A stretch of 51,341 bases of DNA from Candidatus Omnitrophota bacterium (GCA_025453395.1 JALOQK010000009.1:1-51341), one strand, 5' to 3'; shown: positions 1-34,987, counted from the stretch's first letter. The notes: a model not told the origin generated them from the sequence alone. Program-made: numbers and translations.

Positions 1-98
1 TCTTTGTTGGTCTGATAACTTACAAAGTAACAGGTTTTCTTTGATCTGTGGAGCTTTTTTATTTATTCCCTTTGTCGCACTTTAGTTTACAATCTTCT

Positions 99-310
99 AG
101 CTGTAAGCTGTAAGCTATAAGCTATAAGCTAAATCATAAGAATGAGTAGTGAGGATGAGTAATGAGGTTAGCATGAGAATTAGGTTGAGGAAAAAATTTA
201 AAGATTTTTCCCATACCTGACCCTCACCCCAAACCCACAACCCATAACTCACAACTGACCCTTATAACTTATACTTTTACCTTTTGACTTTTTCCTTTTT
301 ACTTTTATAA
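99..310. repeat. heptamer-periodic composite palindromic element (~30 units of 7 nt)
   Basis: Tiles in one register: AGCTGTA x2, AGCTATA x2, ..., ATGAGNN units, an AT loop, AACCCAC/AACTCAC units, then CTTTTAC/CTTTTGA units. Confidence 0.9.
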
Positions 311-311
311 T
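284..311 (+). promoter_or_regulatory. sigma70-type promoter: TTGACT-16-TATAAT, ATG 7 nt downstream (leaderless)
   Basis: TTGACT at 284-289 and TATAAT at 306-311. The ATG is at 318 and no Shine-Dalgarno is present. Confidence 0.55.
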
Positions 312-317
312 ATATCC

Positions 318-1214
318 ATGCTTCCCAACCAAATGCGCACAGACACATTAACCGGCTTTTTCCTAAGAGAACACCTTGAGCCTTTCCTGCAAGAACAATT
401 CTTAACCACTAAGATTGCCAATACAACCTTTACCATCGCCTTAATTGACCTGGATCGCTTCAAAAGATTCAATGACCGCTATGGCCACCAATTCGGCGAT
501 GAAGTCTTAAAGTATTTCTCCGGCACAATAAAACTAACCCTGCGCGATACCATATTCTTTATTTTCCGCTATGGCGGAGACGAATTTATCGTTGTATTCC
601 CGGAGAAAACCCCTAAAGAAGTCCATTCTATACTTACAAAATTCCGGCATAACCTGCGTTACCGGCCATTCCTGGCTCAAAATCGGCTATACCACATAAG
701 AATGAGCTGCGGCATTGCCGCTGGAATGCATGACGCCAAAACTCCGGCAGAGCTTATCAAGAAAGCCGATGAAGCAATGTATTACGCGAAGCGCCACGGA
801 AGAAATTCCATTACCCACGCTGATCAAATCTTCTGTCTTCGCTTAGTCAACTTTATCGCGGCAATCATAAGCGGAACATTTATAGTTTTAAGCATCCTTA
901 TTGCTTCTAACATTTTCTCTGTAAACATTGAAAGCACGCTGACTTATATAGTAAATAAAATACAGTCCGTTGGAAAAACGCCTATTAAAAAGAATCCGCT
1001 TTCGCACAAAAATTCACCAACAGCTCGGCAAGAAACCTGTGATATCGTTATCTTAAAAAACGGCGGGATATTCGAAGGCAAAATCATCACCGAAACCCAA
1101 GAAAAAATTATCTTTAACCTCTATATGGCCAACGGCGAAGGCATGGCTACTTTTTATAAAAAAGAAATAGAACAGATAAAACACGACCAGCCCCGCATAT
1201 CCGGCTCTCCTTAA
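318..1214 (+). CDS. GGDEF-domain diguanylate cyclase with C-terminal membrane anchor and short beta-rich tail
   Basis: RYGGDEF active-site motif and DRFKRFNDRYGH. A hydrophobic helix (LVNFIAAIISGTFIVLSILIASNIF) follows the catalytic domain. No N-terminal sensor domain. Confidence 0.85.
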   Translation: MLPNQMRTDTLTGFFLREHLEPFLQEQFLTTKIANTTFTIALIDLDRFKRFNDRYGHQFGDEVLKYFSGTIKLTLRDTIFFIFRYGGDEFIVVFPEKTPKEVHSILTKFRHNLRYRPFLAQNRLYHIRMSCGIAAGMHDAKTPAELIKKADEAMYYAKRHGRNSITHADQIFCLRLVNFIAAIISGTFIVLSILIASNIFSVNIESTLTYIVNKIQSVGKTPIKKNPLSHKNSPTARQETCDIVILKNGGIFEGKIITETQEKIIFNLYMANGEGMATFYKKEIEQIKHDQPRISGSP

Positions 1215-1219
1215 GAATT

Positions 1220-2569
1220 TCATTTGCCATGTGGCTTTTGTTCAATATTGATATAATCATCAAAGGTGATTTTCTCCCCTAATTCTTCCTTAACCACGCG
1301 AATCCGATCAGGCACATAAGGGTGAGTTTTGTAATAGCTGTATTCTCGAGGCGGCCGGCGTTTATTTATGTCCTCCAGCTTACCCAAGAAGGCAATCATC
1401 CCTTTGGGGTCATACCCAGCTAATTTAGCGTAGCGCGCAGCTAACTGATCCGCTAAAAGTTCATCTTCGCGCGAATAACCAAGCATTAATTCTGTAAAGG
1501 CCTGGTCCGCGGCTACCCCGGAACCTTCAGCCGCAGCTTGTGCTAATAACACCCTGAACACAGTATAAATTTGGCTTCCCTGTAATTTCTTGATGCTGTG
1601 CCGGGCAACAATATGGCCGACTTCATGGGCGATAACTCCTGCCAGTTGATCATCATCGGTTGCTTTTTCTATCAGTCCGCGGAAAATATAAACATGCCCA
1701 CCAGGAAGGGAAACCGCGTTTACTTCATCTTCATCCAATACGATAAAATGATAGATTATATCTTTTCTGTCACAGACCGCGGCGATCTTCTCTCCAATAT
1801 CTTCAACCCTTTTTTGCATTAAAGGATCATTCACAGGTTTATATTCTTTCTCAATCTGCTTGGCAATAGAGTCGCCCATTGCCACTTCCTTGTCCGTAGA
1901 GTAAAAATAGGTTTCTTCCTGTTTGGTGGCGATGTTGTATTCGGTAGTGCAGCCTGCGATAAAAATACCCCCCAACAAAAGAAAAACAATCACGCCTGAC
2001 TTTCTCAACATTTGATAAAGTTTTCTTATGGGAAGCCCTACAACATTATAAAAACACCCTTCTATTTTACGGATAAAGAAAGCGCCTCTCCCCTGGATAT
2101 CAAAACTTCCTGCCTTGTCTAATGGCGAAGTATGAGTAAAATAATTCTTTATATCCTGGTCAGTTAATTTATCCATATAGACTTTTGTTTTCTCAACACC
2201 GACAAAAACCTTGGAATTATTCTCACTTTTATCAATAAGCGCCAGGCCGGTATAAACCCACTGCGGCTTTAAAGAAAGTTTTTTCAGCATCCTCTTTGCT
2301 GCAATGATATTTTTAGGCTTACCGAATATTTTACCATCTTGAACAGTAATAGTATCGGCTGCGATAATTACTGCGTTTTGCACTTTTTCTGCCGCGGCCC
2401 TGGCTTTTTTTAAGGCGTTGCGCTGGACAAGGCCTGAATAGGATTTACCGCGCGGTTTTTTGTCTTCCTTAACGTTTACCGGCAAGACCTTGAATTTCAG
2501 GCCAAAAATCTTTAACAACTTTTTTCTTGGCCTTGAATTAGAAGCTAAATATATATCTCTCATCTTCAT
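1220..2569 (-). CDS. Maf-like nucleotide pyrophosphatase fused in frame to an M48 zinc metalloprotease with an internal lipoprotein-type signal
   Basis: N-terminal half has Maf motifs (LASNSRPRKKLL, DKAGSFDIQG, VVGLP). An internal MLRKSGVIVFLLLGGIFIAGC signal/lipobox follows, then HEVGHIVARH (HExxH) and a YYKTHPYVPDRI M48 C-terminus. No stop codon separates the halves. Confidence 0.75.
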   Translation of the reverse strand: MKMRDIYLASNSRPRKKLLKIFGLKFKVLPVNVKEDKKPRGKSYSGLVQRNALKKARAAAEKVQNAVIIAADTITVQDGKIFGKPKNIIAAKRMLKKLSLKPQWVYTGLALIDKSENNSKVFVGVEKTKVYMDKLTDQDIKNYFTHTSPLDKAGSFDIQGRGAFFIRKIEGCFYNVVGLPIRKLYQMLRKSGVIVFLLLGGIFIAGCTTEYNIATKQEETYFYSTDKEVAMGDSIAKQIEKEYKPVNDPLMQKRVEDIGEKIAAVCDRKDIIYHFIVLDEDEVNAVSLPGGHVYIFRGLIEKATDDDQLAGVIAHEVGHIVARHSIKKLQGSQIYTVFRVLLAQAAAEGSGVAADQAFTELMLGYSREDELLADQLAARYAKLAGYDPKGMIAFLGKLEDINKRRPPREYSYYKTHPYVPDRIRVVKEELGEKITFDDYINIEQKPHGK

Positions 2570-2577
2570 ATAATATA

Positions 2578-2710
2578 GCGTAAAGTGTAAAACGCAAAGC
2601 GTAAAACTATAGCGTAAAATTAAAAGTTTTGAATTTTAAATTATGGTTTTACGTTTTTCGCTTTCAGTTTTTAGCTGACGGCTAATGGCTGACAGCTGAT
2701 AGCTGCTGAT
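2578..2710. repeat. heptamer-periodic palindromic element (GCGTAAA family plus GCTGACG family; 19 units)
   Basis: GCGTAAA GTGTAAA ACGCAAA GCGTAAA ... TTTTGAA TTTTAAA ... TGACGGC TAATGGC TGACAGC TGATAGC, all in one register. Confidence 0.9.
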
Positions 2711-3936
2711 TCTCCTGCTAAATATCCGGTAGAAAAAGCCGCCTGCAGGTTAAAGCCTCCTGTATCGGCATGCACATCCATGATTTCGCCGGCAAAATAT
2801 AATCCCTTAATAAGGCGCGATTCCATATTCTTAGGGTTGATATCCTTTAATGACACGCCCCCCCTTGTCACCATTGCCTCATCAAAAGTACCGGCAGAAG
2901 ACACTTCAAAAGAAAAATCTTTCAAAACCTGAACAATGCGCGCGCGCTCTTTTTGAGTAACGTAACTGGCCTTTTTAGAAGCATCAATGGAGTTCATCTC
3001 TAAGAACACATCCACTAATCTTAAAGGCAGCAACGATTTCATAATATTGCGTAAGCTGGTGCGATTATTCTGCCCTAATTCTCTTAACATGCGCTTATCC
3101 AGGATTTCATAACTTAAGGCTGGCTTTAAATCTATGTGCACAAAAACCGGCTCTTTTTTTTCCAGCCACAAAACAATCCTGTCGCTTAAGGTAACAACCA
3201 ATGGCCCGGAAATGCCTTTATGCGTAAAAAGCAAATCCCCGATTTCTGAAAGGATATTTTTTGCCCCTTGAGTGAATTTTATCCTGATATTCTCAAGGCT
3301 TAACCCCTGTAAAATAACAGGATACCCTTTTTTTAATTCTAACGGAACTAAACTTGGCCTTAGCGGCTCTATACGGTGAGCTAATTTTCCAGCTATGCGT
3401 ATGCCATCTCCAGTTGAGCCAGTAGCAGGATAGGAAACTCCCCCTGTAGCAAGAATTACCTTCTGCGCTGGCAGAAATTCTTTTCCGGAAAGAATCACTA
3501 ATTCTGGCCTGCCATCTTTAATCTGGATGCCTTCCACGGTCCTGTTCAGGATAAATCTTATTTTTCTATCGCATACCTGGCTTAAAAGAGTATCCCAGAT
3601 ACTTTTTGCAGAATTACTCCTTGGGAAAACACGTTCCTGACGCTCTACTTTTAGTTTTACCCCGAGTTTTTCAAAAAACTGCATTAGGTCTTGGTTGGAG
3701 AATTTCTTAAAGGCATCGCGCAGAAAATCCCCTCCATGAAAAAACTTAGGGATAAAATCTTCCATCGGGATAGAATTGGTAAGATTGCATCTTCCTTTGC
3801 CGCTTAAAAGTATTTTCTGGGCGGGATGCTTGTTTTTTTCTATTAAAATAACCTTGGCGCCAAGTTCGCTGGCGCGGATACTTGCCATAAGGCCTGCAGG
3901 CCCAGCGCCAATAACAATAATTTCTGAATTAGACAT
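2671..3936 (-). CDS. FAD-dependent oxidoreductase, HI0933/YhiN (BaiN-like) family
   Basis: N-terminal VIGAGPAGLMAS dinucleotide-binding motif and C-terminal GGFNLQAAFSTGYLAG typical of the family. ATG at 3936 preferred over the upstream GTG at 3948. The last ~13 codons lie in the heptamer repeat. Confidence 0.85.
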   Translation of the reverse strand: MSNSEIIVIGAGPAGLMASIRASELGAKVILIEKNKHPAQKILLSGKGRCNLTNSIPMEDFIPKFFHGGDFLRDAFKKFSNQDLMQFFEKLGVKLKVERQERVFPRSNSAKSIWDTLLSQVCDRKIRFILNRTVEGIQIKDGRPELVILSGKEFLPAQKVILATGGVSYPATGSTGDGIRIAGKLAHRIEPLRPSLVPLELKKGYPVILQGLSLENIRIKFTQGAKNILSEIGDLLFTHKGISGPLVVTLSDRIVLWLEKKEPVFVHIDLKPALSYEILDKRMLRELGQNNRTSLRNIMKSLLPLRLVDVFLEMNSIDASKKASYVTQKERARIVQVLKDFSFEVSSAGTFDEAMVTRGGVSLKDINPKNMESRLIKGLYFAGEIMDVHADTGGFNLQAAFSTGYLAGESAAISCQPLAVS

Positions 3937-3970
3937 ATAGGCAATCACTCAACTAACTAAGGACAAATAT

Positions 3971-4097
3971 GATAAGAATGAGAAGTTAGGATGAGCAATG
4001 AGTTTAGGGTGAGAATTAGGTTGAGGAAGAAATTTAAATATTTTTCTCACAACCCACCCTCATCCTATTCCCACAACTCACGCCCCACATCTGACCC
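3971..4097. repeat. second copy of the GA-rich arm / AT loop / C-rich arm element
   Basis: The left arm and loop are about 85% identical by eye to 135-210. The right arm shares the CCCACAAC, ACTCAC and CTGACCC blocks. Confidence 0.85.
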
Positions 4098-4112
4098 TAT
4101 TAATATGGAAAA

Positions 4113-4679
4113 TTACCTCAATAAATCTTCTATCGTAAAAATGGATTCTAATTTAATCCCCGCTTGTTTTAAGTTTTCAACAGCTCCTTCATTTCTGTCA
4201 ACAATAACAACCGCTTTTACGATTTCAATGCCTTCTTTATCCAAGGCCTCTTTAGCTTCAATAACCGCCTTGCCGGTTGTGGCCACATCATCAACTACGA
4301 TTACCCGGGCACCTTTTTTAAGGGCCGGACCCTCAATTTGACGCTTGGCGCCATGTTCTTTAGCCGCCTTACGCACGATAAAAGTTTTTATGGGGTGATC
4401 CTTTATATAGCTGAAGCATGCCAGAGCTCCGACAATCGGGTCTGCCCCTAAAGTCGGGCCTCCAACAGCATCAATATTTTGATCATGGATAAGTTCCATG
4501 ATGATACTTGCAACCAAATACGCGCCTTCTGGGGTAAGAGTAATCACCCTGCCGTCTAAATAATAGGTGCTGGTCTTACCGGAAGACAAAACAAAGTTCC
4601 CAGTCTTAAACGCCTCTTTCTTAAGAAGCGCGAGTAATTCTTTTTTCAATTGATTCATATCTTTCTCTGGTAAACACAT
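4113..4679 (-). CDS. pyrE: orotate phosphoribosyltransferase
   Basis: PRPP-binding motif VIVVDDVATTGKA. Length and overall pattern fit PyrE. GGGAGG lies 6 nt upstream of the ATG. Confidence 0.9.
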   Translation of the reverse strand: MCLPEKDMNQLKKELLALLKKEAFKTGNFVLSSGKTSTYYLDGRVITLTPEGAYLVASIIMELIHDQNIDAVGGPTLGADPIVGALACFSYIKDHPIKTFIVRKAAKEHGAKRQIEGPALKKGARVIVVDDVATTGKAVIEAKEALDKEGIEIVKAVVIVDRNEGAVENLKQAGIKLESIFTIEDLLR

Positions 4680-4715
4680 ATATGTCCTCCCATTAATAGT
4701 TATTAAGACGATTAG

Positions 4716-4744
4716 ATTGTAACATTAAATTTTAGAGGTGTCCA
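4716..4744 (-). promoter_or_regulatory. candidate pyrE promoter: TGGACA-17-TACAAT
   Basis: Minus-strand hexamers at 4744-4739 and 4721-4716. The ~35-nt leader contains GGGAGG. Confidence 0.45.
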
Positions 4745-4754
4745 CCCCATCTTT

Positions 4755-4806
4755 AGCTTAAAGCTTATAGCTTATAGCTTACAGCTTACAGCTTACAGCT
4801 GATAAG
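4755..4806. repeat. AGCTTAY heptamer array (7 units), inverse orientation of 99-130
   Basis: AGCTTAA AGCTTAT x2 AGCTTAC x3 AGCTGAT. Its reverse complement gives the AGCTGTA/AGCTATA units seen at 99-130. Confidence 0.9.
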
Positions 4807-4809
4807 TTT

Positions 4810-4838
4810 TTGACAAGTAGCCCTTTGATTGTTATGAT
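4810..4838 (+). promoter_or_regulatory. sigma70-type promoter: TTGACA-17-TATGAT, ATG 7 nt downstream (leaderless comF)
   Basis: TTGACA at 4810-4815 and TATGAT at 4833-4838. The ATG is at 4845 and no Shine-Dalgarno is present. Confidence 0.6.
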
Positions 4839-4844
4839 ATCTTC

Positions 4845-5573
4845 ATGCTTAAGAAAGCATTCAGCAACCTAGTGGATTTGATTTACCCCCGGGTATGCTT
4901 AGCTTGCGCCAAGAAACTGCCTGCCAGCGCAAAAGAAGAAACCTACCTATGCGGGCCTTGTACCAATAAAATCAAAAGAAACAGGCCTCCTTTCTGCCAT
5001 TGTTGCGGGAAACATTTAAATGAGAAAAGTTTGCATAAAAACCTCTGCGTTACCTGCCTTAAAATGCCTCTTTATTTTGACCGCGCTTTTAGCCCCTATA
5101 TCTATGAAGATATCTTAAAAACCTTAATCCATAAATTCAAATACCAGCGCAAAGACTATCTGGGCGGCTTTTTATCCAGTATGCTGCTTGACTTTATCCA
5201 AGATTATGACTTGCCAATTGCCTATTTAGACCTTATAATACCAATTCCGTTACATAAAGCTAAATTAAGAGAACGCGAGTTTAATCAAGCAGAAGTTTTG
5301 GCAAAAGGCATATCCCATAGGTTTAATAAGCCCATGGATACTTTTATCTTAACGCGCCGGACAAATACTAAAAGCCAAACCGCTCTTGATCATGAGAAAA
5401 GATTTCAGAACATCCGGGGGAACTTCGCTTTAGAAAGCCATTCCTCCGTAGAAGGAAAGAATATCCTTCTGGTGGATGATGTCCTAACAACCGGAGCGAC
5501 CTGTTCGGAAGCCGCGCGAATTTTAAAAGAAAAAGGCGCTGGAGTAGTCTTTGTTTTAACCTTGGCCAGCTAA
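4845..5573 (+). CDS. comF: ComF-family phosphoribosyltransferase-like protein
   Basis: N-terminal Cys clusters (CLAC..CGPC, CHCCG..CVTC) plus C-terminal PRT motif LLVDDVLTTGAT. Confidence 0.8.
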   Translation: MLKKAFSNLVDLIYPRVCLACAKKLPASAKEETYLCGPCTNKIKRNRPPFCHCCGKHLNEKSLHKNLCVTCLKMPLYFDRAFSPYIYEDILKTLIHKFKYQRKDYLGGFLSSMLLDFIQDYDLPIAYLDLIIPIPLHKAKLREREFNQAEVLAKGISHRFNKPMDTFILTRRTNTKSQTALDHEKRFQNIRGNFALESHSSVEGKNILLVDDVLTTGATCSEAARILKEKGAGVVFVLTLAS

Positions 5574-5579
5574 CTAAAA

Positions 5580-6674
5580 ATGAAAATACTGCGTAATTAT
5601 TTCCTCAAAGAATTCTTAGGCCCCCTGTTCTTATCGCTATTGGTACTTACCTTTATTATGCTTATCGGAAATCTGATCAAGATCACGGAACTAGTAATAA
5701 ATAAAGGTGTGGATATATTTACCGTATCCAAGCTCTTCTTGTTCATGATACCGTATCTTTTGACCTACACCCTTCCAATTTCAGCATTGACTGCTTCGCT
5801 TATGTCTTTAGGCAGGCTCTCTGGGGACAATGAGATTATCGCCATAAAAGCAAGCGGGATTAATATCTTCCGCTTGATCGTGCCGCAATTAATTGTCGGA
5901 GTGATCTTAAGCCTCTTTTTAGTCATCTTTAACGACCGGGTCATCCCTTACGCGCACTTTGCCTCTAGAAAAATGCTTGTGGAAGTCGGCATAAAAAATC
6001 CTGCCGCCGCCCTTGAGCCGGGAGTTTTCATTAATTCTTTCCAAAAATATGTGCTTTTTATTTATCGCATTGAAGAAAACAAGCTAATTAATATCCGTAT
6101 CTATGAGCCGCAGGAAGGAAAACCCACCCGCACCATTGTCGCTAAAAATGGGGAGTTTATAGTCCTGCCGGAAACTAACACCATAAAACTAAAACTTATT
6201 GACGGCACATCTGATGAGCCTGACCCGGAAAATCCGACCAATTTTTATAAACTTAATTTCAAAACTTATTTTATGAACCTTGATTTAGCGCAAATGCAAA
6301 AAAAATCTGATATCCAGAAGAAACCAAAGGACATGACCATCAAAGAACTGCAAAGTGAAATAGCAAGGCTTGAGAAAGAAAAAATAGACCCTGCGCCGCT
6401 TTTAACAGAGATAAATGAGAAAATCGCGCTTGCCTTTTCCTGCCTTGTGTTTATCCTGTTGGGTTCATCTACCGCGATCATTACCAGAAGAAGAGAGAAA
6501 AGCATAAATTTCGGGATTGCTTTTTTAATCGTGGGGCTGTATTACATTCTTTTGATCGGCTCCGAAGCGTTAAGCCTGCAAGGGTATATAAATCCCATGC
6601 TTGCCATGTGGTTACCCAATATCATACTTGGGACAGTTGGAGCTATCCTAACTTATAGGTTATGCGCATATTAG
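5580..6674 (+). CDS. lptF: LPS export ABC permease LptF (YjgP/YjgQ family)
   Basis: About 360 aa with three N-terminal and three C-terminal TM helices around a periplasmic domain. Paired with a paralogous downstream gene. Confidence 0.8.
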   Translation: MKILRNYFLKEFLGPLFLSLLVLTFIMLIGNLIKITELVINKGVDIFTVSKLFLFMIPYLLTYTLPISALTASLMSLGRLSGDNEIIAIKASGINIFRLIVPQLIVGVILSLFLVIFNDRVIPYAHFASRKMLVEVGIKNPAAALEPGVFINSFQKYVLFIYRIEENKLINIRIYEPQEGKPTRTIVAKNGEFIVLPETNTIKLKLIDGTSDEPDPENPTNFYKLNFKTYFMNLDLAQMQKKSDIQKKPKDMTIKELQSEIARLEKEKIDPAPLLTEINEKIALAFSCLVFILLGSSTAIITRRREKSINFGIAFLIVGLYYILLIGSEALSLQGYINPMLAMWLPNIILGTVGAILTYRLCAY

Positions 6675-7759
6675 ACCGCTATATCTTAAAATCCGTATTA
6701 AGCATGTTCGCGGGATGCATCCTTGCTTTTAGTTTTCTCTATGTGATCATTGATATTTTTACCATCCTTGAAGATATCTTAAAACAAAAAACCTCTATCA
6801 TCCTGCTTGTTAAATATTACCTGTCTTTTATGCCATATATTTTTGTGCAGGTTTCCCCCTTTGCCGGCCTATTAAGTACCCTCTATACTTTCGGAAAATT
6901 AAACCGTGACAATGAAGTTATCGCCATGCGCTCATCCGGGTTAAGCATTATTAGCATCACCAAGACCGTGCTTATTTTTGGGCTGATCTCAAGCTTGGCA
7001 GTATTTTTGATTAACGACCGGATTGTGCCGCACGCCTTGGCAGAAAAACAAAGCCTCAAAGAAAGTATCGAAAAGGGCTCTAATAAGAAAGTTGATGCCA
7101 ACCTGCCGCTATACAACTTCTCTATGTACGGGCTTAAAAACCGCCTCTTTTTCGTCAACAGCTTTTCTCTGGCAACAAATACCATGGAGGGAATCACCAT
7201 ACTTGAACATGACGAAAAGCAAAACATCACCCGCAAGATCATCGCCGAAAAAGGCGTGTTCCAGGACGGATTCTGGACATTTTATAAAAGTATCACCTAT
7301 GACTTTGACCAAAATGGACAAATCAAAAATGAACCCTCTTTTTTAAGCGAAGAAATTATGACCATCCCCGAGACCCCGAAGGATTTCATAAATCAAAGAC
7401 AGGTGCCGGAATTAATGACTTCCTCGCAATTATCCAGTTACCTCTGGAGGCTTTCTAAAAGTGGCGCCATAGGCGCAATACGAAACTTAAAGATAGACCT
7501 TTACGAAAGATACGCCTCAAGCCTGACGAATATAATTATAATTCTTCTGGGGATACCGTTTGCCTTAATCATGAGAAGAAAAGCAACCGGCTTGTCTTCT
7601 TTAGGATTATCTCTTGCGATGGGATTTTTATATTATGTAGTTAACGCGGTAAGTATTGCCCTGGGCAAAGGCGGGTTTTTGCCTGCCTTTGCGGCTGTAT
7701 CTCTAAGCCACATCTTAGCAGCGGCCTTTAGCATATATCTTATTTCAAAACTTCCTTAA
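6662..7759 (+). CDS. lptG: LPS export ABC permease LptG (YjgP/YjgQ family)
   Basis: Begins MRILDRYI, typical of the family. Same architecture as the upstream paralog and overlaps it by 13 nt. Confidence 0.8.
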   Translation: MRILDRYILKSVLSMFAGCILAFSFLYVIIDIFTILEDILKQKTSIILLVKYYLSFMPYIFVQVSPFAGLLSTLYTFGKLNRDNEVIAMRSSGLSIISITKTVLIFGLISSLAVFLINDRIVPHALAEKQSLKESIEKGSNKKVDANLPLYNFSMYGLKNRLFFVNSFSLATNTMEGITILEHDEKQNITRKIIAEKGVFQDGFWTFYKSITYDFDQNGQIKNEPSFLSEEIMTIPETPKDFINQRQVPELMTSSQLSSYLWRLSKSGAIGAIRNLKIDLYERYASSLTNIIIILLGIPFALIMRRKATGLSSLGLSLAMGFLYYVVNAVSIALGKGGFLPAFAAVSLSHILAAAFSIYLISKLP

Positions 7760-8871
7760 ATATACACTCTGGGGATGCGGCTTCCTAAACCACAAACAAT
7801 TTCATAGGGTATTGTGCCGGATAAATTTGCCAGCTCTTCGGTAGTAATAGTATTCTTACCTTGAGACCCGATAAAAACCACTTCCTCGCCGATCTTTACC
7901 GTAGCGTTACCGACATCCACCATAATCTGATCCATGCAGATCCTTCCGCTTATCTTAAACTTTCTGCCGCCGATTAATACCGGGGCCAGATTAGAAAGAT
8001 TGCGCGGATATCCATCACCATAACCAATAGGAAGATTAACAATAGTAGAATTCTTGTCGGTAACATAGGTATAACCATAACTTATGCCATATCCTTTGGG
8101 CACGCGCTTAGCATAGACTATTTTTGATTTTAAACTTAACACTGGTTTTAGATTAATGGATAAGTTTTCATCCGGATAAAGCCCGTAAAGGACTAAGCCG
8201 GGCCTGACCATGTTAAAATGGCTTTGCTTGTAGGCGGCAATGCCCATACTATTTGCCGCATGCACAAGCGGGATATTTATTTTACTATGCTCTAACCTTC
8301 GTATTAAAGCCTCAAAGGTTCTGGCCTGATGCAAGGTAAAATCACGGTTAACATCCGCAAGGGACAAATGCGTGAAAATACCCTCTATCTCAAGCTGTGA
8401 TAGCCTCTTTAACCTGCACACAAAATCATAGGCCTGTTTGCATAAAACACCGAGTCTGCCCATGCCGGTATCTACTTTTACGTGCACCTTTACTTTGCGC
8501 GATTTAAGAAAAGCAGCCTTATTTAATGCGCGGGCAAAATCATAATCACAAAGCGTCTGGCTTAAATTGTATTTTAAGATAGGTGCAATATCGCCTTTAA
8601 GCGGCACGCCTAAAATAAGTATAGGCGACTTTATGCCTTTTTCTCTTAACAAAATCCCCTCGTCAATAGAAGCCACGCTTAGATAATCAACTGCCGAAGC
8701 TTCCAATTTCTTGGCCACAGGAATAAGCCCATGGCCATAGGCATCTGCTTTAACGCAAGCCATGACCTTAACATATCCTGGTATAATACTTTTAATCTCA
8801 AGCAAATTATGCTTAAGATTATTAAGATTAATTTCCGCCCATGTAGGACGGTACCCTATAGAGTTATGCAT
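7756..8871 (-). CDS. alr: alanine racemase
   Basis: PLP-lysine motif VKADAYGHG and N-terminal RPTWAEINL. Length 371 aa. Confidence 0.9.
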   Translation of the reverse strand: MHNSIGYRPTWAEINLNNLKHNLLEIKSIIPGYVKVMACVKADAYGHGLIPVAKKLEASAVDYLSVASIDEGILLREKGIKSPILILGVPLKGDIAPILKYNLSQTLCDYDFARALNKAAFLKSRKVKVHVKVDTGMGRLGVLCKQAYDFVCRLKRLSQLEIEGIFTHLSLADVNRDFTLHQARTFEALIRRLEHSKINIPLVHAANSMGIAAYKQSHFNMVRPGLVLYGLYPDENLSINLKPVLSLKSKIVYAKRVPKGYGISYGYTYVTDKNSTIVNLPIGYGDGYPRNLSNLAPVLIGGRKFKISGRICMDQIMVDVGNATVKIGEEVVFIGSQGKNTITTEELANLSGTIPYEIVCGLGSRIPRVYI

Positions 8872-8876
8872 AATTT

Positions 8877-9010
8877 TCAGCTTTCAGCTATCAGCTTTCA
8901 GCTATCAGCAAAACTAAAACCAAAACTAAAACCAAAAAAATAAAACTAAAAGTTAGTTTCGGTTTAGTATTTAGTTTTTAGCTGACGGCTGATAGCTGAC
9001 AGCTGACGGC
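8877..9010. repeat. heptamer-periodic long imperfect palindrome (19 units) between alr and tsaB
   Basis: TCAGCTT/TCAGCTA x4, then AAAACTA-type units, centre near 8950, TTTAGTT-type units, then CTGACGG/CTGATAG x4, which complement the first arm. Confidence 0.9.
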
Positions 9011-9681
9011 TTTCTTATTTGGCATTCCTTGGGATACAAATAAATCGGCTTTATCCCAAATGAATCCGTGAATTGCTTACACTGCAATTTTTCCTGCGCT
9101 ACCTGGACAAGATAACGCGGCTTAATCCCCCACCAATCCTTATCCAGAAAAAAGCTCTTATGGACAGAGGCCTGAAATTGTTTTTGATACAGAGAAAGCC
9201 CGTCCCCCACAAACAAACTGGGGCCTTTTATTTTAAGGCATAACTCTTCCGGAGTAACAAGCATATAATTTGACGATCTCTTAAAAACTTTGTGGTTTTG
9301 ATAAATAGCTGCGTAGACCATGCCTCGCCTGGCATCCATAACCGGAACAATCTGGATATTTCTTTCTTTGTCCGCTGCGGCTTTTGCCAAGACATCCAGC
9401 CCGCAAAGCCCAATAACCGGCTTATCCAAAGAAAACGCGATGCCTTTTATAAACGACAAGCCAATGCGGATACCGGTAAAAGACCCGGGCCCCAGATTTG
9501 CCGCCAAATAATCCAAATCTTCCCATTCCCAATTAAGACTTGTCAGGATTTGTGACAAAATATGCGTAATATTCTCAGAAAGTTTTACCCCGGTATAAAG
9601 ACGGTATTCATAGATCTTTTCACCATCTAAAATACCCACAGAAAAAAAGTTAGTGCTTGTATCAATAGCAAGTATTTTCAT
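8971..9681 (-). CDS. tsaB: tRNA t6A37 threonylcarbamoyltransferase complex subunit TsaB
   Basis: ILAIDTS start and GPGSFTGIRIG motif. The last ~11 codons (PSAVSYQPSAKN) are encoded by the heptamer repeat. Confidence 0.85.
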   Translation of the reverse strand: MKILAIDTSTNFFSVGILDGEKIYEYRLYTGVKLSENITHILSQILTSLNWEWEDLDYLAANLGPGSFTGIRIGLSFIKGIAFSLDKPVIGLCGLDVLAKAAADKERNIQIVPVMDARRGMVYAAIYQNHKVFKRSSNYMLVTPEELCLKIKGPSLFVGDGLSLYQKQFQASVHKSFFLDKDWWGIKPRYLVQVAQEKLQCKQFTDSFGIKPIYLYPKECQIRKPSAVSYQPSAKN

Positions 9682-10175
9682 ATCTTAAATTCCCGTAGTA
9701 ATTCCTGATAGCGCGCGCCTTTTGCGCTAAATAAGATCTGCCGAGATGTGTTCCCTGTTATCTTTAATTCTACCAGAAGGCATTCTTTTGGAAAGATCTT
9801 TCCTAATCGTTCTGGCCATTCAATCAAAGTAACCGCATCATCATAAAAATACTCTTCATAGCCGATATCGGCTATATCTTTTATCTTATCCAAGCGGTAT
9901 AAATCAAAGTGATTAAGCGGTATTTTACCAGATAAATACTGCTGCATAATTACAAAGGTGGGGCTGGTGACAGCGTTTTTTATGCTTAAGCCTTTTGCCA
10001 CGCCTTTGGCAAAAACAGTCTTACCGGCTCCTAAATTTCCTTTCAAACAGATAATATCTGCTTTCTTCAAGAAACCCGCCAACCGCCCTGCGATAGAAAG
10101 TGTCTTCTTAAAGGAAGAGGAATTCAATTTAAACTTAGAAATGCCGATAGCCTTGTGGTTGTATATTTTTTTCAT
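9678..10175 (-). CDS. tsaE: tRNA t6A37 ATPase TsaE
   Basis: P-loop GNLGAGKTVFAKG, SPTF and DLYRL motifs. The start may lie downstream, because the ORF overlaps the thiL end by 41 nt. Confidence 0.8.
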   Translation of the reverse strand: MKKIYNHKAIGISKFKLNSSSFKKTLSIAGRLAGFLKKADIICLKGNLGAGKTVFAKGVAKGLSIKNAVTSPTFVIMQQYLSGKIPLNHFDLYRLDKIKDIADIGYEEYFYDDAVTLIEWPERLGKIFPKECLLVELKITGNTSRQILFSAKGARYQELLREFKI

Positions 10176-11031
10176 CTTGGTTATTTAAAATAAGCTTTAT
10201 TCTTTCCTTCAAACAATTTATTTCACCAATAGGGTAAAAACAAAATTTATCCTGACGCATAAGTTTCTTGGCGCAATCAGAGTCCACAGTAAACAATAGC
10301 TCAAAATCCTCTCCATCTGTCAAAGAAGCTTTAAAATCCTTGGCCTGACTGGATACGGGAACAAGGTCCTGATAAAGCACTGCCCCTTTTTTACTCTGCT
10401 TTAAGATGTGGCCTAAGTCCTGGAGAAGGCCGTCAGAAATATCAATCATGGAATGAACCTTAAAATTCTCGGCTAAAAACCTTGCCTCTTTTAAGCGCGG
10501 GATAAATTTAAGGTGCTTTCCCTTGATTGATCCGCCTAAACTGCCGGTAGTAAAAATAATGTCCTTGTCGCGCGCTGCGCTTCTTAAAACAAGGCTATTC
10601 TTTTCAACCCTGCCGATCATACTTACATCTATAACTACTTTTTGGCTTTTGCTGATATCGCCTCCGACAAGATTTACTCCATACTCTTTACATGCGGCAA
10701 TAATGCCTTTGGTCAAACGGTCAACTTTATCAAGCGAAAGATCTTTTGGCAGGCCTAAAGAAATAACACAATGCTGCGGGACACCACAACAAGAAGCAAT
10801 GTCGCTTATAGAAACACAAACCGCTTTTCTGCCTACCCAATAAAAATCTGTGCCTTTTAAGAAATCCACGCCCTCTACAAGCATGTCACAAGTAAAAAGC
10901 TGGTATGATTTTTTGTCAAACTCTAATACCGCGCAATCATCGCCAGAACCAACGATAACTGATGTATCGGTTTTAATAGATTTCCTGATCCTATCTATCA
11001 AACCAAACTCGCCCAGCTTACTTATCTGCAT
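10135..11031 (-). CDS. thiL: thiamine-monophosphate kinase
   Basis: AIR-synthase-like fold motifs: GEFGLIDRI, GDDCAVL, DISDGL. Confidence 0.85.
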   Translation of the reverse strand: MQISKLGEFGLIDRIRKSIKTDTSVIVGSGDDCAVLEFDKKSYQLFTCDMLVEGVDFLKGTDFYWVGRKAVCVSISDIASCCGVPQHCVISLGLPKDLSLDKVDRLTKGIIAACKEYGVNLVGGDISKSQKVVIDVSMIGRVEKNSLVLRSAARDKDIIFTTGSLGGSIKGKHLKFIPRLKEARFLAENFKVHSMIDISDGLLQDLGHILKQSKKGAVLYQDLVPVSSQAKDFKASLTDGEDFELLFTVDSDCAKKLMRQDKFCFYPIGEINCLKERIKLILNNQDEKNIQPQGYRHF

Positions 11032-12061
11032 ATTTTTCTATGTTAAGTTTATATAACGGCTTGATAATTCCCCTGTCGGTAATAATCGCGGTTATTAAGT
11101 TATTAGGGGTTACATCAAATGCCGGATTCCAGAATTTTATTCCCTTGGCGGTAACTTGATTCTTAAAAAACAGGCTAGATACTTCTTCATGGCTTCTTTC
11201 TTCAATCAATATATCCATACCGGTTTTTATATCCAGATCAAAAGTGGAAAACGGCGCGGCAGCATAAAATGGTATCTTGTGATACTTTGCCAAAACTGCC
11301 AAGCTGTAAGTGCCGATTTTATTAGCAGTGTCCCCATTTAGGGCAATTCTATCCGCCCCGACAATCACCTTATCCACCGAACCGCTTTTCATAAGACTTG
11401 CCGCCATACTATCGCAGATAAGCGTAACATCAATACCGCTTCGTTTTAATTCCCAAGTGGTAAGCCGCGCCCCTTGTAAAAGGGGACGGGTTTCACAGGC
11501 AAAGACTTTTATATTCTTCCCCTGCTCATGGCTTTTATAAATTACGCCTAAGGCAGTTCCATAATCAATGGTCGCTAAGATTCCGGTATTACAAATAGTA
11601 AGAATGCGCTCATTTTTCTTAACCAGACTTGCGCCATAAGCGCCTATCCTGCGGCAAGATGCTCTATCCTCTTCTATAACCTTGTTTGCTTCCTGAAAAA
11701 GCGTCTTCTTTATTTTTTCTACTGACAAATGTTTAGCTTTATCAGAGACGCAAAGCATTCTCTCTAAACCCCAGAAAAGATTGCGCGCAGTAGGCCGTGA
11801 AGAAGCTAAATAATTAACCACTGATTTTAATTCTTTGTAAAATTGCGCGTAATCCTTGGCTTTGGAATCTTTAATCCCTAAATATACGCCTAAACAGGCG
11901 CTTGCGCCCAAAGCCGGTGCCCCACGCACCTTTAATTCCTTAATCGCCTGCCAAAGGACTTTGATATTCTTAATATCAATATACTTAAACTCTCCCGGCA
12001 AAAGAGTCTGATCGATCATGCGAATCCGGTTATTCTTCCATTCAATCGTACGAATACCCAT
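11018..12061 (-). CDS. mtnA: S-methyl-5-thioribose-1-phosphate isomerase (eIF-2B alpha/beta/delta family)
   Basis: VRGAPALGA and GADRIALNGDTANKIGTY motifs. ATG at 12061 has GGAGG 7 nt upstream. The longer ORF to 12106 starts at a GTG inside the repeat region. Confidence 0.8.
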   Translation of the reverse strand: MGIRTIEWKNNRIRMIDQTLLPGEFKYIDIKNIKVLWQAIKELKVRGAPALGASACLGVYLGIKDSKAKDYAQFYKELKSVVNYLASSRPTARNLFWGLERMLCVSDKAKHLSVEKIKKTLFQEANKVIEEDRASCRRIGAYGASLVKKNERILTICNTGILATIDYGTALGVIYKSHEQGKNIKVFACETRPLLQGARLTTWELKRSGIDVTLICDSMAASLMKSGSVDKVIVGADRIALNGDTANKIGTYSLAVLAKYHKIPFYAAAPFSTFDLDIKTGMDILIEERSHEEVSSLFFKNQVTAKGIKFWNPAFDVTPNNLITAIITDRGIIKPLYKLNIEKYADK

Positions 12062-12101
12062 ATTAATACCTCCATAATCACATGTTGTCACAAAGTCACA
12101 G

Positions 12102-12350
12102 ATCACAGGACATAATAAAGCGTAAAGCTAAAAGCGCAAAACTAAAAACTATAGCGTAAAATTAAAAACTTTTAAATCTTGAATTATGGTTTTACCTGCC
12201 TACCGGCAGGCAGGCCAAATAAATTCCAAATTTTAAATCCCAAACAAATTCAAAATCCCAAATCCAAAACTAGCGCGCAAAATCACAGGACACAATAAAG
12301 CGTAAAGCTAAAAGCGCAAAACTAAAAACTATAGCGGAAAATTAAGAACT
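12102..12350. repeat. two 69-nt direct repeats (period 180 nt) of the GCGTAAA family, flanking a GC hairpin and AAATYCC heptamers
   Basis: 12102-12170 and 12282-12350 differ at 3 positions. CCTGCC-TACC-GGCAGG lies at 12195-12210. AAATTCC AAATTTT AAATCCC ... lies at 12221-12270. Confidence 0.9.
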
Positions 12351-12397
12351 TGCTTATCATATTTTTTAACGTTTGGCTTGGCTGTGTTTTTGTAAGC

Positions 12398-13525
12398 TCA
12401 AAGACCAATCAACCTAGCCAACAAACTCTTCTTTACCTTAACCGCGGCCTTGGGACAGACTTCCTGACAACAGAAACAAGCGATACATTTCTTATAATCA
12501 AAGCACATCTTAGTATTCTCAAAAATTATTACCTGCTTCGGACAGGCTTTAATGCAAGCAAAACACTGGATACACTTAGAAGCATCAATATAAGGACGAT
12601 ATTTTATAAAGCTCATAATGAATCTTGCCACAGGCTCTGGCAATTTCTGACTCATGGCAGTCTTAGGAAGAAGAAACTTCCTGCCAATAACTTTCTCTAA
12701 AGGCTCACCTAAGACTTGAATATCGCTTTTTACAAAATCAAGCATCCCGATTCTTTTTGCCTCTTTATTTACTGGAACCGACAACGGGTCAATACCCATA
12801 ATAAGCGCTAATATATAATCCACAGCCAAGGCATCAGATCCTGCAACAATAATTTTCTCTTGCCTTAATTTTCCGCTTGTTGCCGGGCCATCACCCTCCA
12901 TCGCCACAATCCCATCAACGATATTGATCACCGGATTTGCGCTTTTATAAATATCCAATAACATGGCGGCAAAATCACTGGGACGGAAATATTTCTTGTG
13001 TAATTCAGTTTTAAAGCTTCCGCAAACTAAACCAAAAAGATTTTTTACTGCCGCGGTCATCAGCATCATCCCATGCGTTTTAAATTTAGGAATGTTAATA
13101 ATATAATCGCAATCCCCAATCCAAGCAGTCAACGGTATATTATTATAAAAACGCTTGGGCCCAAATAACACAAGCTCTACGCCCTCTTCTTTACAAACAC
13201 GCGTTATCCCTGATTGAGCATAAACCTCATTCACATTATTAATATATTTTCCCCAGGCGCTTGGGCTATCCCCTGCTACTATCCGGCATTCAAGCGGCTT
13301 CAAGAGGCGGATCACCGCGCGCAATACTTCCGGGTGCGTGGTAATGCCGGATTCTGGGCTAGCGGACATTAAAACATTTGGTTTTAATAAGACCGTGGAT
13401 TTTGGCTTAATCAAAGATTCTATCCCGCCTAAAAGCTTCACGGATTTGTTAACCGCTTCTTGCACTAATTCAGGAGTATAATCTTTGCAAGAAACAATGG
13501 AAACTTTATGCTTTGTCATATTCAA
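12398..13525 (-). CDS. DUF362-domain protein with C-terminal 2x[4Fe-4S] ferredoxin domain
   Basis: Two CxxCxxCxxxCP motifs (CIQCFACIKACP, CIACFCCQEVCP) follow a DUF362-like body. Confidence 0.75.
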   Translation of the reverse strand: MNMTKHKVSIVSCKDYTPELVQEAVNKSVKLLGGIESLIKPKSTVLLKPNVLMSASPESGITTHPEVLRAVIRLLKPLECRIVAGDSPSAWGKYINNVNEVYAQSGITRVCKEEGVELVLFGPKRFYNNIPLTAWIGDCDYIINIPKFKTHGMMLMTAAVKNLFGLVCGSFKTELHKKYFRPSDFAAMLLDIYKSANPVINIVDGIVAMEGDGPATSGKLRQEKIIVAGSDALAVDYILALIMGIDPLSVPVNKEAKRIGMLDFVKSDIQVLGEPLEKVIGRKFLLPKTAMSQKLPEPVARFIMSFIKYRPYIDASKCIQCFACIKACPKQVIIFENTKMCFDYKKCIACFCCQEVCPKAAVKVKKSLLARLIGL

Positions 13526-14286
13526 CCTTTTATGCCAAAGAAATTCTTGGCTTGCCTTGTAGTTATTTCCCCTACTTCTTCAGGGCCAACGCCTTTAATC
13601 TTTGCGATTTCTTCTGCCACATAAACCACATTTGCTGGTTCGTTTCTTTTACCGCGCAAACCCTCTGGCGACAGATACGGCGCGTCAGTCTCCAAAAACA
13701 TTCTTTCTAAAGGGCAAAATTTCACCAAATCGCGCAGATCTTGCGCTTTCTTATAAGTAATATTGCAGGTAAAAGAAACATAAAACCCCAAATCCAAACA
13801 TTTATCCAAAAAATCTTTGCCTCCGGCAAAACAATGCACCACTGCCCTCAAGGGCATATACTTTTTTAATAAGGAAATTGTTTCCTCCTGCGCAGAACGA
13901 GAGTGGATAACTAACGGTAAATTTAATTCTTTGGATAGGTTAACTTGCGCGATAAAGGCTTCTTCTTGTTTTTTGGGATTAGATAAATTTCGGTAAAAAT
14001 CAAGGCCCGTTTCTCCGATAGCAACAACTTTATCATTTGATGCTAAAACCTTAAGTTCAGCCAAAGAAGAAGCGTCAAAGCTATTTGCATCGTGCGGATG
14101 CACGCCAACAGAAGCGTAAACAAAATCGTTTTTCTTGCAAAGCTCTACTGCTCTTTTAGAAGCATCTAAATCTGAACCAACATTAATAATATACTTAACA
14201 TCTCTTTCAAGCGCGCGCCTAATAACATCAAGCCTGTCACTATCAAAATCAGAAAAATCCAAATGCGCGTGCGTATCTATATACAT
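13522..14286 (-). CDS. tatD: TatD-family metal-dependent DNase/hydrolase
   Basis: IDTHAHLD start, HCF.GG and ETDAPYL motifs. Confidence 0.9.
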   Translation of the reverse strand: MYIDTHAHLDFSDFDSDRLDVIRRALERDVKYIINVGSDLDASKRAVELCKKNDFVYASVGVHPHDANSFDASSLAELKVLASNDKVVAIGETGLDFYRNLSNPKKQEEAFIAQVNLSKELNLPLVIHSRSAQEETISLLKKYMPLRAVVHCFAGGKDFLDKCLDLGFYVSFTCNITYKKAQDLRDLVKFCPLERMFLETDAPYLSPEGLRGKRNEPANVVYVAEEIAKIKGVGPEEVGEITTRQAKNFFGIKG

Positions 14287-15783: not shown

Positions 15784-16594
15784 CTTTAATAGGATTTTTA
15801 TTTTCTTTGTTTTCGTTAAAATCAAGTTCCGCATATCCGCCCTCTTCAAGCTCAAGAGTGGCTTTGCGCTTAAAGACATTAACTGAAATAACTTTGCCCT
15901 TGCCTTGAGGACAAGTTAATTTCTCTCCCTCGCGAGGCAGGCCCTTAGAAAGCGCCTTATAAGTATCATATTCATAACTTAAGCAACACATAAGCCTTCC
16001 GCAAAGACCTGAGATCTTGGGCGGGTTTAAAGGCAAACCCTCTTCCTTTGCCATTTTAATGGTTACCGGCTCAAAATCTTTTAAGAATTTCCTGCAGCAA
16101 AGTTCCCTGCCGCAAGAGCCAATGCCTCCAAAAAGCCTGGCCTCATCGCGCACGCCAATTTGGCGCAATTCAATGCGCGCCTTAAAGACCTTTGCCAGGT
16201 CTTTTACCAGCTCACGAAAATCCACTCGGCCAGATGCGGTAAAATAGAAAATTATCTTGGTGCGGTCAAAAGAATACTCTGCTGCCACAAGCTTCATATC
16301 CAATTTATGCTCTTCTATTTTCTTAACGCATGAAGTAAACGCCTCTTTGGCTCTTATTTTGTTTTCCTCAATCTGCTTAACATCTGCTTCGGCTGCCTGG
16401 CGCACTATCTTTTTTATTATTTCTTTGGCGCTGTTGGCTACCGTGGGCTCATTAGGAGAAACTACTTTTCCGTAGTCAATGCCCCGGTCATGCTCAACTA
16501 TGACTAAACATCCTTCTTTAATATCTAAAGAGGCGCCCGAACAGGTACAAACCTGTCCGCAAGCCCTTAAACGCACCATTATTGTCTTTTCCAT
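15776..16594 (-). CDS. PSP1-domain protein (RicT/YaaT-like)
   Basis: PSP1 C-terminal domain pattern with Cys-rich CGRELCCRKF and CGRLMCCL. Shows the conserved tmk-holB-yaaT gene order. Confidence 0.8.
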   Translation of the reverse strand: MEKTIMVRLRACGQVCTCSGASLDIKEGCLVIVEHDRGIDYGKVVSPNEPTVANSAKEIIKKIVRQAAEADVKQIEENKIRAKEAFTSCVKKIEEHKLDMKLVAAEYSFDRTKIIFYFTASGRVDFRELVKDLAKVFKARIELRQIGVRDEARLFGGIGSCGRELCCRKFLKDFEPVTIKMAKEEGLPLNPPKISGLCGRLMCCLSYEYDTYKALSKGLPREGEKLTCPQGKGKVISVNVFKRKATLELEEGGYAELDFNENKENKNPIKDA

Positions 16595-16599
16595 GAGAT

Positions 16600-17568: not shown

Positions 17569-17591
17569 TGAGCCAACTCTCCCCCCGACAC

Positions 17592-18224: not shown

Positions 18225-18416
18225 AGTTTCCTTAAGTCTGCTTTCTGGTTTTTGCTTCCGGCACTGATCCCGACGTAACGTCGGGACTAATGTGCCTCCA
18301 GCAAAAACCATCAAGAAATAATTAAACGCTGACAAACTTCCAGGTGTAATCCTAAAATCTTTTTAAATCCCCCAATCATTGTTTTTACAAATACCGAGGC
18401 ATGTTTCTCTGCCTTA

Positions 18417-18500
18417 AAAGCGCAAAGCTAAAAGCGTAAAGCGAAAAACTATAGTGTAAAATTTAAAACGTTTTGAGCTTTAAATTATGGTTTTACCTGC
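18417..18500. repeat. GCGTAAA-family element, fourth copy
   Basis: AAAAGCGCAAAGCTAAAAGCGTAAAGCGAAAAACTATAGTGTAAAATTTAAAACGTTTTGAGCTTTAAATTATGGTTTTACCTGC aligns with 2578-2653 and 12117-12199. Confidence 0.85.
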
Positions 18501-18509
18501 TAAAAATAT

Positions 18510-19913: not shown

Positions 19914-19979
19914 ACTTTTATATTAGATTTTTGCGCATGGCTTGGCTTGATTTCGACAGAAGCAAAAATCTATTAATTA

Positions 19980-34813: not shown

Positions 34814-34865
34814 AATATTATATATTTAGTTATAATACACTAATAAGTCAAAATATTATATCCTA

Positions 34866-34987
34866 TGTTCCCGGCGGTGTCAACCAATTAAAAAGCCCGC
34901 TGCGACACCCCCGCTCCCGACGCTGGCTTCGCCAGGCCGGGACTTCTAGGATCGCAGCTTCGGCTTGACGAAGAAGCGTGGGAACCA
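34866..34987. ncRNA. GC-rich structured element (unclassified; candidate small RNA or lysS leader)
   Basis: Visibly GC-rich island in AT-rich surroundings. The closing stem GTTCCC/GGGAAC encloses three hairpins (34876-34909, 34915-34942, 34958-34973). Confidence 0.3.

Follow-up and report, generated by a model that had tools for sequence, protein, structure and literature searches.

A dispersed intergenic repeat with heptamer-phased arms in Candidatus Omnitrophota and other phyla, probably an ERIC- or MITE-like palindromic element

Introduction

Dispersed intergenic palindromes, which include REP sequences, ERIC elements and MITEs, are known mainly from cultured Proteobacteria and Firmicutes. 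ERIC elements (also called IRU) are imperfect palindromes of about 127 bp that reside in transcribed intergenic regions of Enterobacteriaceae and Vibrio. MITEs are non-autonomous, multi-copy intergenic sequences with terminal inverted repeats, whose transcripts form hairpins and which may carry weak promoters or processing sites.

Several related groups of sequences are relevant here. The Correia elements of Neisseria are an example of MITEs (Delihas, PMC3184786). REP and BIME (REPIN) elements are extragenic palindromes in dispersed positions (Di Nocera et al., PMC3733652); REPs are G+C-rich sequences of 20-40 bp with a GTAG or CGTC tag. Heptanucleotide simple repeats include the cyanobacterial STRR sequences and the TAACTGA repeats of Beggiatoaceae (PMC4679880).

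Here we describe a repeat that occurs four times in a 51,341 nt stretch of Candidatus Omnitrophota DNA (GCA_025453395.1 JALOQK010000009.1:1-51341, referred to as the window), and for whose family no description was found in the full-text literature searched. By analogy of architecture, ERIC elements and MITEs are its closest counterparts. Like ERIC, it is one long imperfect palindrome of about 110-125 nt that occurs in either orientation, lies between genes (including positions inside operons), is present or absent at orthologous sites of related species, has truncated copies and internal insertions, and has no known mobilising enzyme. Unlike ERIC, with which it shares no sequence similarity, it is very A+T-rich, its arms consist of A-rich and T-rich units phased at 7 nt, and its phylogenetic span (Atribacterota, Omnitrophota and Planctomycetota) is far wider. 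Like MITEs, it is short, non-coding, multi-copy DNA with terminal inverted repeats (at least 132 copies, with arms that are 86% paired). It differs in that the inverted repeat spans the whole element rather than its termini alone, and neither a target-site duplication nor a parent insertion sequence sharing its ends was found.

Resemblance to the other groups is more partial. The repeat is a dispersed extragenic palindrome as REPs are, and REP-like GC hairpins adjoin it in nine Atribacterota loci. A REP or REPIN identity was nevertheless rejected, as the element is about 110 nt long, A+T-rich and untagged, and the GTAG-tagged hairpins beside it are separate modules. With the STRR and TAACTGA repeats it shares a 7-nt unit, an intergenic location, a patchy spread across phyla and, in some cases, abutment on start codons that lack a Shine-Dalgarno sequence (PMC4679880). 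Those repeats are tandem direct copies of one exact unit, whereas here the units are degenerate, the arms are inverted and there is a unique conserved core; unlike in those repeats, copy number does not vary between near-identical strains. As in bidirectional intrinsic terminators, an A-tract, a hairpin and a T-tract can be read on both strands. Unlike in such terminators, the stem is long, A-U-rich and interrupted by a mismatch every 7 nt, no U-run follows a G+C-rich stem base, and the element is dispensable and invertible inside rpoBC.

Four copies of the repeat in the window

The window is a segment of a Candidatus Omnitrophota chromosome, with a CysRS that is 74-78% identical to those of the best-matching Omnitrophota MAGs and only 47-49% identical to those of Atribacterota. 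Housekeeping genes surround the repeat copies (encoding LptF/G, Alr, TsaB/E, an MtnA-like protein, MetRS, HolB, Tmk, CysRS and a Maf-M48 fusion). None of the 20 window ORFs covered by a Pfam scan (19 between 318 and 19913, plus 47958-51194) encodes a transposase, and the window contains no tRNA or tmRNA. An integron attC site (RYYYAAC ... GTTRRRY, with promoterless cassettes) was rejected because the ends CAAAAC / GTTTTGA do not fit and the flanks are syntenic housekeeping genes.

An earlier note, made from the sequence of the window, had described a heptamer-tiled element recurring in one orientation, and four such copies were indeed recovered. The 21-mer AACTATAGCGTAAAATTAAAA has four plus-strand matches with at most two mismatches (2605, 12147, 12327 and 18447), where none were expected from 100 shuffles. 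A 70-nt repeat family likewise has four members (2560-2629, 12102-12171, 12282-12351 and 18402-18471; identity 69-96%), and the second half of the element, ending AATTATGGTTTTAC, is present in three copies (2639, 12182 and 18483). A profile search of the window with nhmmer, which included the remaining 32 kb, found no fifth copy. The distances between successive copies are 9542, 180 and 6120 nt with genes intervening; this spacing is not regular, and a CRISPR array was rejected on these grounds. With the exception of one local duplication, the window copies are only 69-76% identical to one another, and there is thus no sign of recent bursts within the window.

A full element of about 110-125 nt is built on a 12-bp inner inverted repeat, AAAACCATAAyT ... 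AgTTATrGTTTT, around an A/T-rich centre whose length varies. The outer arms are degenerate 7-nt units, of the GCGAAAA type on the 5′ side and the TTTTCGC type on the 3′ side. As a consequence of the palindromic build, each strand reads as an A-rich arm, a centre and a T-rich arm.

Copy 1 (2572..2682, minus strand) is the sole full-length element in the window and comprises an A-rich arm CTAAAAACTGAAAGCGAAAAACGTAAAACCATAATTTAAAATTCAAAAC, a TTTT centre and a T-rich arm AATTTTACGCTATAGTTTTACGCTTTGCGTTTTACACTTTACGCT; on the minus strand its outer arms are heptamers of the GCGAAAA and TTTACGC types. One arm of the inner inverted repeat, AAAACTATAG (2603..2612, plus strand), reads CTATAGTTTT on the minus strand, where it holds the -10-like hexamer TATAGT. 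In the predicted fold it pairs with the partner arm TTATGGTTTT (2641..2650, plus strand; minus-strand reading AAAACCATAA), which is part of the module most abundant in Atribacterota. The note's view of the halves as imperfect complements is borne out for copy 1, an imperfect palindrome that folds as a hairpin on both strands.

The other three copies are shorter or altered. Copy 2 (12110..12207, minus strand; nhmmer E=1.8e-21) consists of the inner core and a T-rich arm that faces the mtnA-like gene, and has a GC-rich hairpin in place of the outer A-rich arm. This hairpin, CCTGCCTACCGGCAGGCAGG (12196..12215), is followed by no T-run on either strand; a similar CCTGCCTGCC... hairpin adjoins the module in Atribacterota locus L162. 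Copy 3 (12290..12350, minus strand; E=3.4e-12) is partial, with a T-rich arm and a degenerate core AACTATAGCGGAAAATTAAGA. It is a local 70-nt duplicate of copy 2, with 96% identity between 12282-12351 and 12102-12171, and the duplication takes in 15 nt of flank that is foreign to the family. Copy 4 (18415..18496, minus strand; E=4.2e-23) again has the inner core and the T-rich arm, and precedes the tmk ATG by about 190 nt. The outer upstream arm is missing from both copy 2 and copy 4.

Homology of the window copies to those of other phyla was assessed with a hidden Markov model trained on 27 palindromic copies from Atribacterota and Planctomycetota only. This profile aligned copy 1 over 2572-2682, corresponding to model positions 11-133 of 140, with E=2.5e-25, and copies 4, 2 and 3 with E=7.3e-14, 2.3e-13 and 1e-6 respectively. 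We regard the family as real and not a product of chance.

Each window copy lies in a gap between two minus-strand genes, and therefore precedes the next gene as much as it follows the one before. The downstream starts on the minus strand are the ATGs of maf-M48 (2569), the mtnA-like gene (12060) and tmk (18224). The maf ATG lies 8 nt from the heptamers and has no Shine-Dalgarno sequence; that of the mtnA-like gene is preceded by GGAGG. On the upstream side, the note's placement of every copy directly after a stop codon is correct for copies 1 and 4 only. In copy 1, the terminal CTAAAAAC of the element itself supplies the TAA at 2671-2673 that ends the HI0933-like ORF (2671-3948), and the cysS stop codon (18510) is 10 nt from copy 4. 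The nearest upstream stop is 48 nt from copy 3 and about 200 nt from copy 2.

Distribution of the family in other genomes

Further copies elsewhere, on which the earlier note had made its proposal depend, are plentiful: other genomes yielded at least 132 homologous copies. The left half AAAACCATAATTYAARNYTYAAAAS was found by exact-pattern scanning at 120 or more loci, mostly in Atribacterota MAGs and in one single-cell genome, and often at several loci per genome. Scans for the right half AAACTATAGYGTAAAATT, which is followed by T-rich heptamers, recovered it from another Omnitrophota MAG (L101, L131), from Phycisphaerae (L112), from several further MAGs and metagenome contigs, and from Sedimentisphaerales, where L106 is a full-length homologue. 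Matches on viral contigs were chance or coding matches only.

Copies are about 85% identical across phylum boundaries, and a non-repetitive core of 22-55 nt is almost identical between phyla. That copies in Omnitrophota and in Atribacterota are nearly identical implies that the family has moved horizontally. Errors in MAG binning could inflate the phylum range, but the element is carried both by the 51-kb window and by an Atribacteria single-cell genome. Conservation is uneven, with the inner 12-bp repeat and a 22-nt core far better kept than the arms, which suggests that some sequence-specific recognition or function is maintained.

Nearly all of the collected copies (131 of 132) are intergenic. 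The types of gap that they occupy (tandem, convergent or divergent) match the background (chi-square p=0.81). An excess of copies in convergent or divergent gaps, considered as a means to tell a terminator from a promoter, was uninformative because 88-90% of gaps of at least 120 nt in loci L139-L258, which are mostly from Atribacterota, are tandem with or without the element. Orientation is biased: relative to both neighbouring genes, the A-rich strand of the module is antisense in 63 collected cases and sense in 24, and all four window copies have the minority orientation. This bias resembles the strand-specific mobilisation, based on single-stranded DNA, of the REP/REPIN type.

The module also enters into combinations. 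Full palindromes account for 33 copies, 21 copies have a 130-nt central insert and nine lie beside GTAG-tagged REP-like hairpins; solo arms occur too. A short ORF in the central insert (MRDKKDETQ) was rejected as a gene since its ATG is not conserved. The REP-like hairpins form GTAG-tagged pairs, GTAGGGGTCGGATTTATCCGACCCG ... GGGCTTGATAAATCAAGCCCCTAC, directly beside the module (in Atribacterota loci L177, L179, L226 and L243, for example), and at several Atribacterota loci another repeat, resembling TTGTCATTGCGAGCGAAGCGAAGCAATCTC, follows the module.

Comparison of orthologous intergenic sites

The spacer between rpoB and rpoC was compared across 24 Atribacterota species. In Atribacteria RBG_19FT_COMBO_35_14 the element fills this spacer. 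It is present in one orientation in L271 and inverted in three sister species (L272, L273 and L279; rpoC 87-92% identical). Six species (L274-L278 and L280; 81-91% identical) lack it and have other heptamer arrays instead, and more distant Atribacterota have plain A+T-rich rpoB-rpoC spacers of 80-260 nt without the element. As it can be present, flipped or absent within the rpoBC operon, the element is not an essential terminator or promoter. A target-site duplication or empty site could not be defined at this position because the flanks are too diverged and too rich in repeats.

The cysS-tmk spacer that carries copy 4 in the window was compared with that of 12 related Omnitrophota, none of which has the element; the two genes range from overlapping to separated by about 200 nt of unrelated sequence. 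A look-up of the exact CysRS protein retrieved one other contig, from an independent assembly (L265, Logan SRR12684589, 21,649 nt), which stops at copy 4, 76 nt past cysS. The repeat thus seems to interrupt short-read assembly, as repeats do, and the element therefore bears on the quality of metagenome-assembled genomes. Separately, in the cysS-tmk spacer of four other Omnitrophota (L006, L013, L014 and L016) there is a conserved, G+C-rich, structured-looking sequence, GCGGGTGAC...CGCGCGCAACGnAAGTGAGCACGG...GGACCCGC.

Folding and pairing

Copy 1 is predicted to fold into a long imperfect hairpin on both strands, the minus strand giving -19.4 kcal/mol (z -2.5) and the plus strand -28.7 kcal/mol (z -3.9). 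Full palindromic copies as a group fold well below shuffled sequences (mean z -3.3 and -5.0 on the two strands), whereas copies 2 and 4 fold no better than shuffles.

The consensus that RNAalifold derived from 27 copies was a trivial 6-bp helix only, and pairing was then counted explicitly on the structure taken from one member. With the arms in register, 86% of alignment cells are paired, compared with 55-62% after a shift of one column. Compensatory changes in the hairpin are not above shuffles. Conserved pairing of the kind that the note had proposed to seek with a covariance model takes the form of arms that pair without covariation, as would be expected if the repeat is inverted DNA rather than an RNA whose structure is under selection. 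Rfam searches gave no match at gathering score in the window. In eight element-bearing loci searched at E<=0.1 the matches were tRNAs, an L10 leader and one sub-threshold Plastid-ycf2 match on a tRNA, with none at a repeat copy.

Heptamer phasing

The 7-nt phasing of the window is real and specific. Lag analysis gave 10 arrays at lag 7 compared with 0-1 at lags 3-13 and 15; three further arrays at lag 14 represent the double period of 7. Tandem Repeats Finder (TRF) reported period 7 or 14 at 2582-2619, 12117-12147, 12297-12327 and 18415-18447. Match levels of 70-96% show the units to be degenerate, and the conserved core is non-repetitive. The register of 19 heptamers that had been proposed for 2578-2710 is phased as described, except for its last five tiles (2676-2710, TGACGGC...TGATAGC), which are part of a distinct AGCTGAC array outside the element (2673..2705, plus strand; TRF, repeat family D3), which recurs at 8980-9011. 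The AGCTGAC array overlaps the last ~12 codons of the HI0933-like ORF 2671-3948, whose Pfam match ends at residue 413 of 425.

Heptamer arrays are also common in related loci. Atribacterota loci L139-L258 contain 328 arrays at lag 7, 86 at lag 8 (octamers) and 1-17 at other lags from 4 to 12. Eleven heptamer arrays were found in rpoBC loci of the JS1 type, and none in the rpoBC loci of other Atribacterota or of non-Atribacterota. The element sits inside a wider excess of heptamer arrays in these lineages. The arrays are not hypervariable: contigs L134, L135 and L138, at 97-99% identity, do not differ by any 7-nt indel in them.

Possible origin and function of the repeat

We consider it probable that the four stretches belong to a family of dispersed, non-coding repeats of about 110-125 nt, imperfectly palindromic and ERIC- or MITE-like in architecture. 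Copies occur in either orientation, with one-arm truncations or foreign inserts, and have been gained, lost or inverted at orthologous sites between sister species. The suggestion in the earlier note of a dispersed selfish element is borne out by the copies in other genomes and by the polymorphism of presence, absence and orientation at an orthologous site. Such copies may have been spread or shuffled by some transposition or recombination process, and would be tolerated only between genes. A transcript reading through an operon would then form a long, mismatch-punctuated A-U-rich hairpin, and effects on expression (weak insulation, a weak outward promoter or an unstructured U-rich leader) would be a by-product and not the reason for the element. 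As no transposase, target-site duplication or clean empty site was identified, mobility is a property that we infer. The orientation bias of 63 to 24 need not be displayed by a purely neutral element.

With this family, behaviour like that of REP, ERIC and MITE sequences extends to uncultured candidate phyla, and the identity of about 85% across phyla points to horizontal traffic of non-coding DNA among anaerobes of sediment and groundwater. The 7-nt phasing also ties the element to the old and unexplained excess of heptanucleotide repeats in prokaryotes, for which it offers a defined, alignable object on which the origin of such repeats and their effects on expression can be tested.

A broader proposal, which we hold tentatively and think rather unlikely, is that the element is one module of an undescribed system common to Atribacterota (JS1-type), Omnitrophota and some Planctomycetota. 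Intergenic DNA would in that case be made from 7-nt phased units and palindromes, written or moved by a dedicated, horizontally transferable machinery, and hairpins with A-rich and U-rich arms would serve as lineage-specific operon punctuation. Candidates for such a machinery could be a polymerase or primase that proceeds in 7-nt steps, or a single-strand-DNA transposase with the 12-bp inner repeat as its recognition site.

The terminator or insulator module that the earlier note had put forward is quite unlikely to be the basis of the family. In that reading the A-rich arm, hairpin and T-rich arm, which can be read on both strands, would constitute a factor-independent and possibly bidirectional terminator, with each stem CGC triplet followed by a U4-5 run, that punctuates long strings of same-strand genes. 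The strong predicted folding of full palindromes agrees with this, as do the abutment of copies 1 and 4 on stop codons and the fact that all five same-strand spacers of more than 90 nt in the first 19 kb contain such heptamer repeats or palindromes. However, simple terminator features are absent. Of 29 terminator-like sites in 1-20000 (a GC-rich stem and then a T-run) none is inside a copy, the nearest being a weak 5-bp stem (18414..18397) just outside copy 4. The absence of the upstream arm from copies 2 and 4, which fold no better than shuffles, and the lack of covariation also count against termination, and so do the genomic settings of the element: it resides between rpoB and rpoC in some species and is inverted or absent there in others, one copy lies between tRNA genes (L181), and another is located downstream of a canonical terminator (L142).

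It is distinctly unlikely that the element is instead an outward promoter, in which TATAGT (TATGGT on the other arm), with TTnAAA 16-17 nt upstream, would drive the gene faced by the T-rich arm and give it a U-rich heptamer leader. TATAGT is invariant in the four window copies, each of which faces a downstream gene start 38-220 nt away, and the promoter scan lists TTCAAA-16-TATAGT (2633..2606) and TTTAAA-17-TATAGT on the minus strand. Between tandem genes, the module's T-rich strand has the sense of the gene whose start it precedes in 63 instances against 24, and in L128 a related 17-mer lies within a perfect TTGACA-17-TAAAAT promoter. These matches score only 9/12, and promoter-like sites are not in excess (51, compared with 47.4 in shuffles). 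Moreover, the -10-like box is replaced by GTTTTGGTTTT (GTTTTGG) in about half of the 27 aligned Atribacterota and Planctomycetota copies, and the same organisms use canonical TTGACA-17-TATAAT promoters elsewhere; at L142, a canonical TTGACG-17-TATAAT promoter serves the tRNA genes. At many loci the arm points towards the 3′ end of a gene that is convergent or antisense, and in the rpoB-rpoC spacer the element is dispensable. Promoter effects, like those of a terminator or insulator, may be secondary features. A phage promoter of the T7 or SP6 type was rejected as well: ACACTATAG matches the SP6 core, but the motif varies (TATGG, TTTGG) and the viral contigs gave only the chance or coding matches noted above.

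Very unlikely, in our estimate, is a cis-acting leader or protein-binding array, in which the U-rich heptamers would bind an RNA-binding protein (S1, Csp or similar) or the 12-bp inverted repeat would bind a DNA-binding protein, for example a nucleoid protein. The better conservation of the inner repeat than of the arms is consistent with such binding, and heptamers reach an ATG without a Shine-Dalgarno sequence at maf (2569), alr (8871), L137 and L040, much as TAACTGA repeats lie upstream of start codons in Beggiatoaceae (PMC4679880). The start codon, however, may be as near as 8 nt or more than 200 nt away, a normal GGAGG is present at copy 2, some copies lie between tRNA genes or beside the 3′ ends of genes, and the unit sequences differ so widely between arrays that no single binding motif is apparent.

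That the copies are mere look-alikes produced by independent slippage of heptamers in situ is scarcely credible, even though arrays of many unrelated heptamer units are strongly over-represented in the window and related lineages and heptanucleotides are the commonest class of long simple repeat in prokaryotes (Mrazek et al. 2007, as cited in PMC4679880), because the 22-55-nt non-repetitive core is near-exact between phyla, the whole element aligns at the E-value given for copy 1, and 7-nt indels are absent between the 97-99% identical contigs.

Other repeats in the window

Several further repeats and promoter-like sequences were observed. A second palindromic family (133-282 and 3969-4118; 78% identity) is also phased at 7 nt, with an A/T centre between a purine-rich arm AATGAGTAGTGAGGATGAG...GGTTGAGG and a pyrimidine-rich arm CCTCACCCCAAACCCACAACCC; the predicted RNA folds of its two members have z -5.1 and -3.5. 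Between tsaB and alr, a nested heptamer palindrome at 8872-9011 (TTTCAGC/TATCAGC x5 ... GCTGACG/GCTGATA x4) is predicted to fold with -61 kcal/mol (z -10), reaches the alr ATG (8871) without a Shine-Dalgarno sequence, and matches the Atribacterota profile of the element weakly (E=3e-6). The 3′ ends of two ORFs, for the HI0933-like protein (2671-2705) and for TsaB (8971-9011), run into AGCTGAC arrays, so that their last ~12 codons are repeat-encoded.

The best two sigma-70-like promoters of the first 20 kb, TTGACT-16-TATAAT (284-311) and TTGACA-17-TATGAT (4810-4838, with TG before it), are both located at ends of heptamer arrays. They end 6 nt before the ATGs at 318 and 4845, which implies leaderless mRNAs. 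Farther along the window, a 236-nt G+C-rich intergenic gap (34814-35049) contains several stem-forming segments and has no Rfam match at gathering score. A 300-nt duplication (44966-45265 and 46525-46824; 87% identity) spans paralogous small ORFs (44952-45305 and 46520-46864), and at 46171-46325 a 63-nt G+C-rich unit that contains a hairpin is present in two copies, 97% identical and 92 nt apart.
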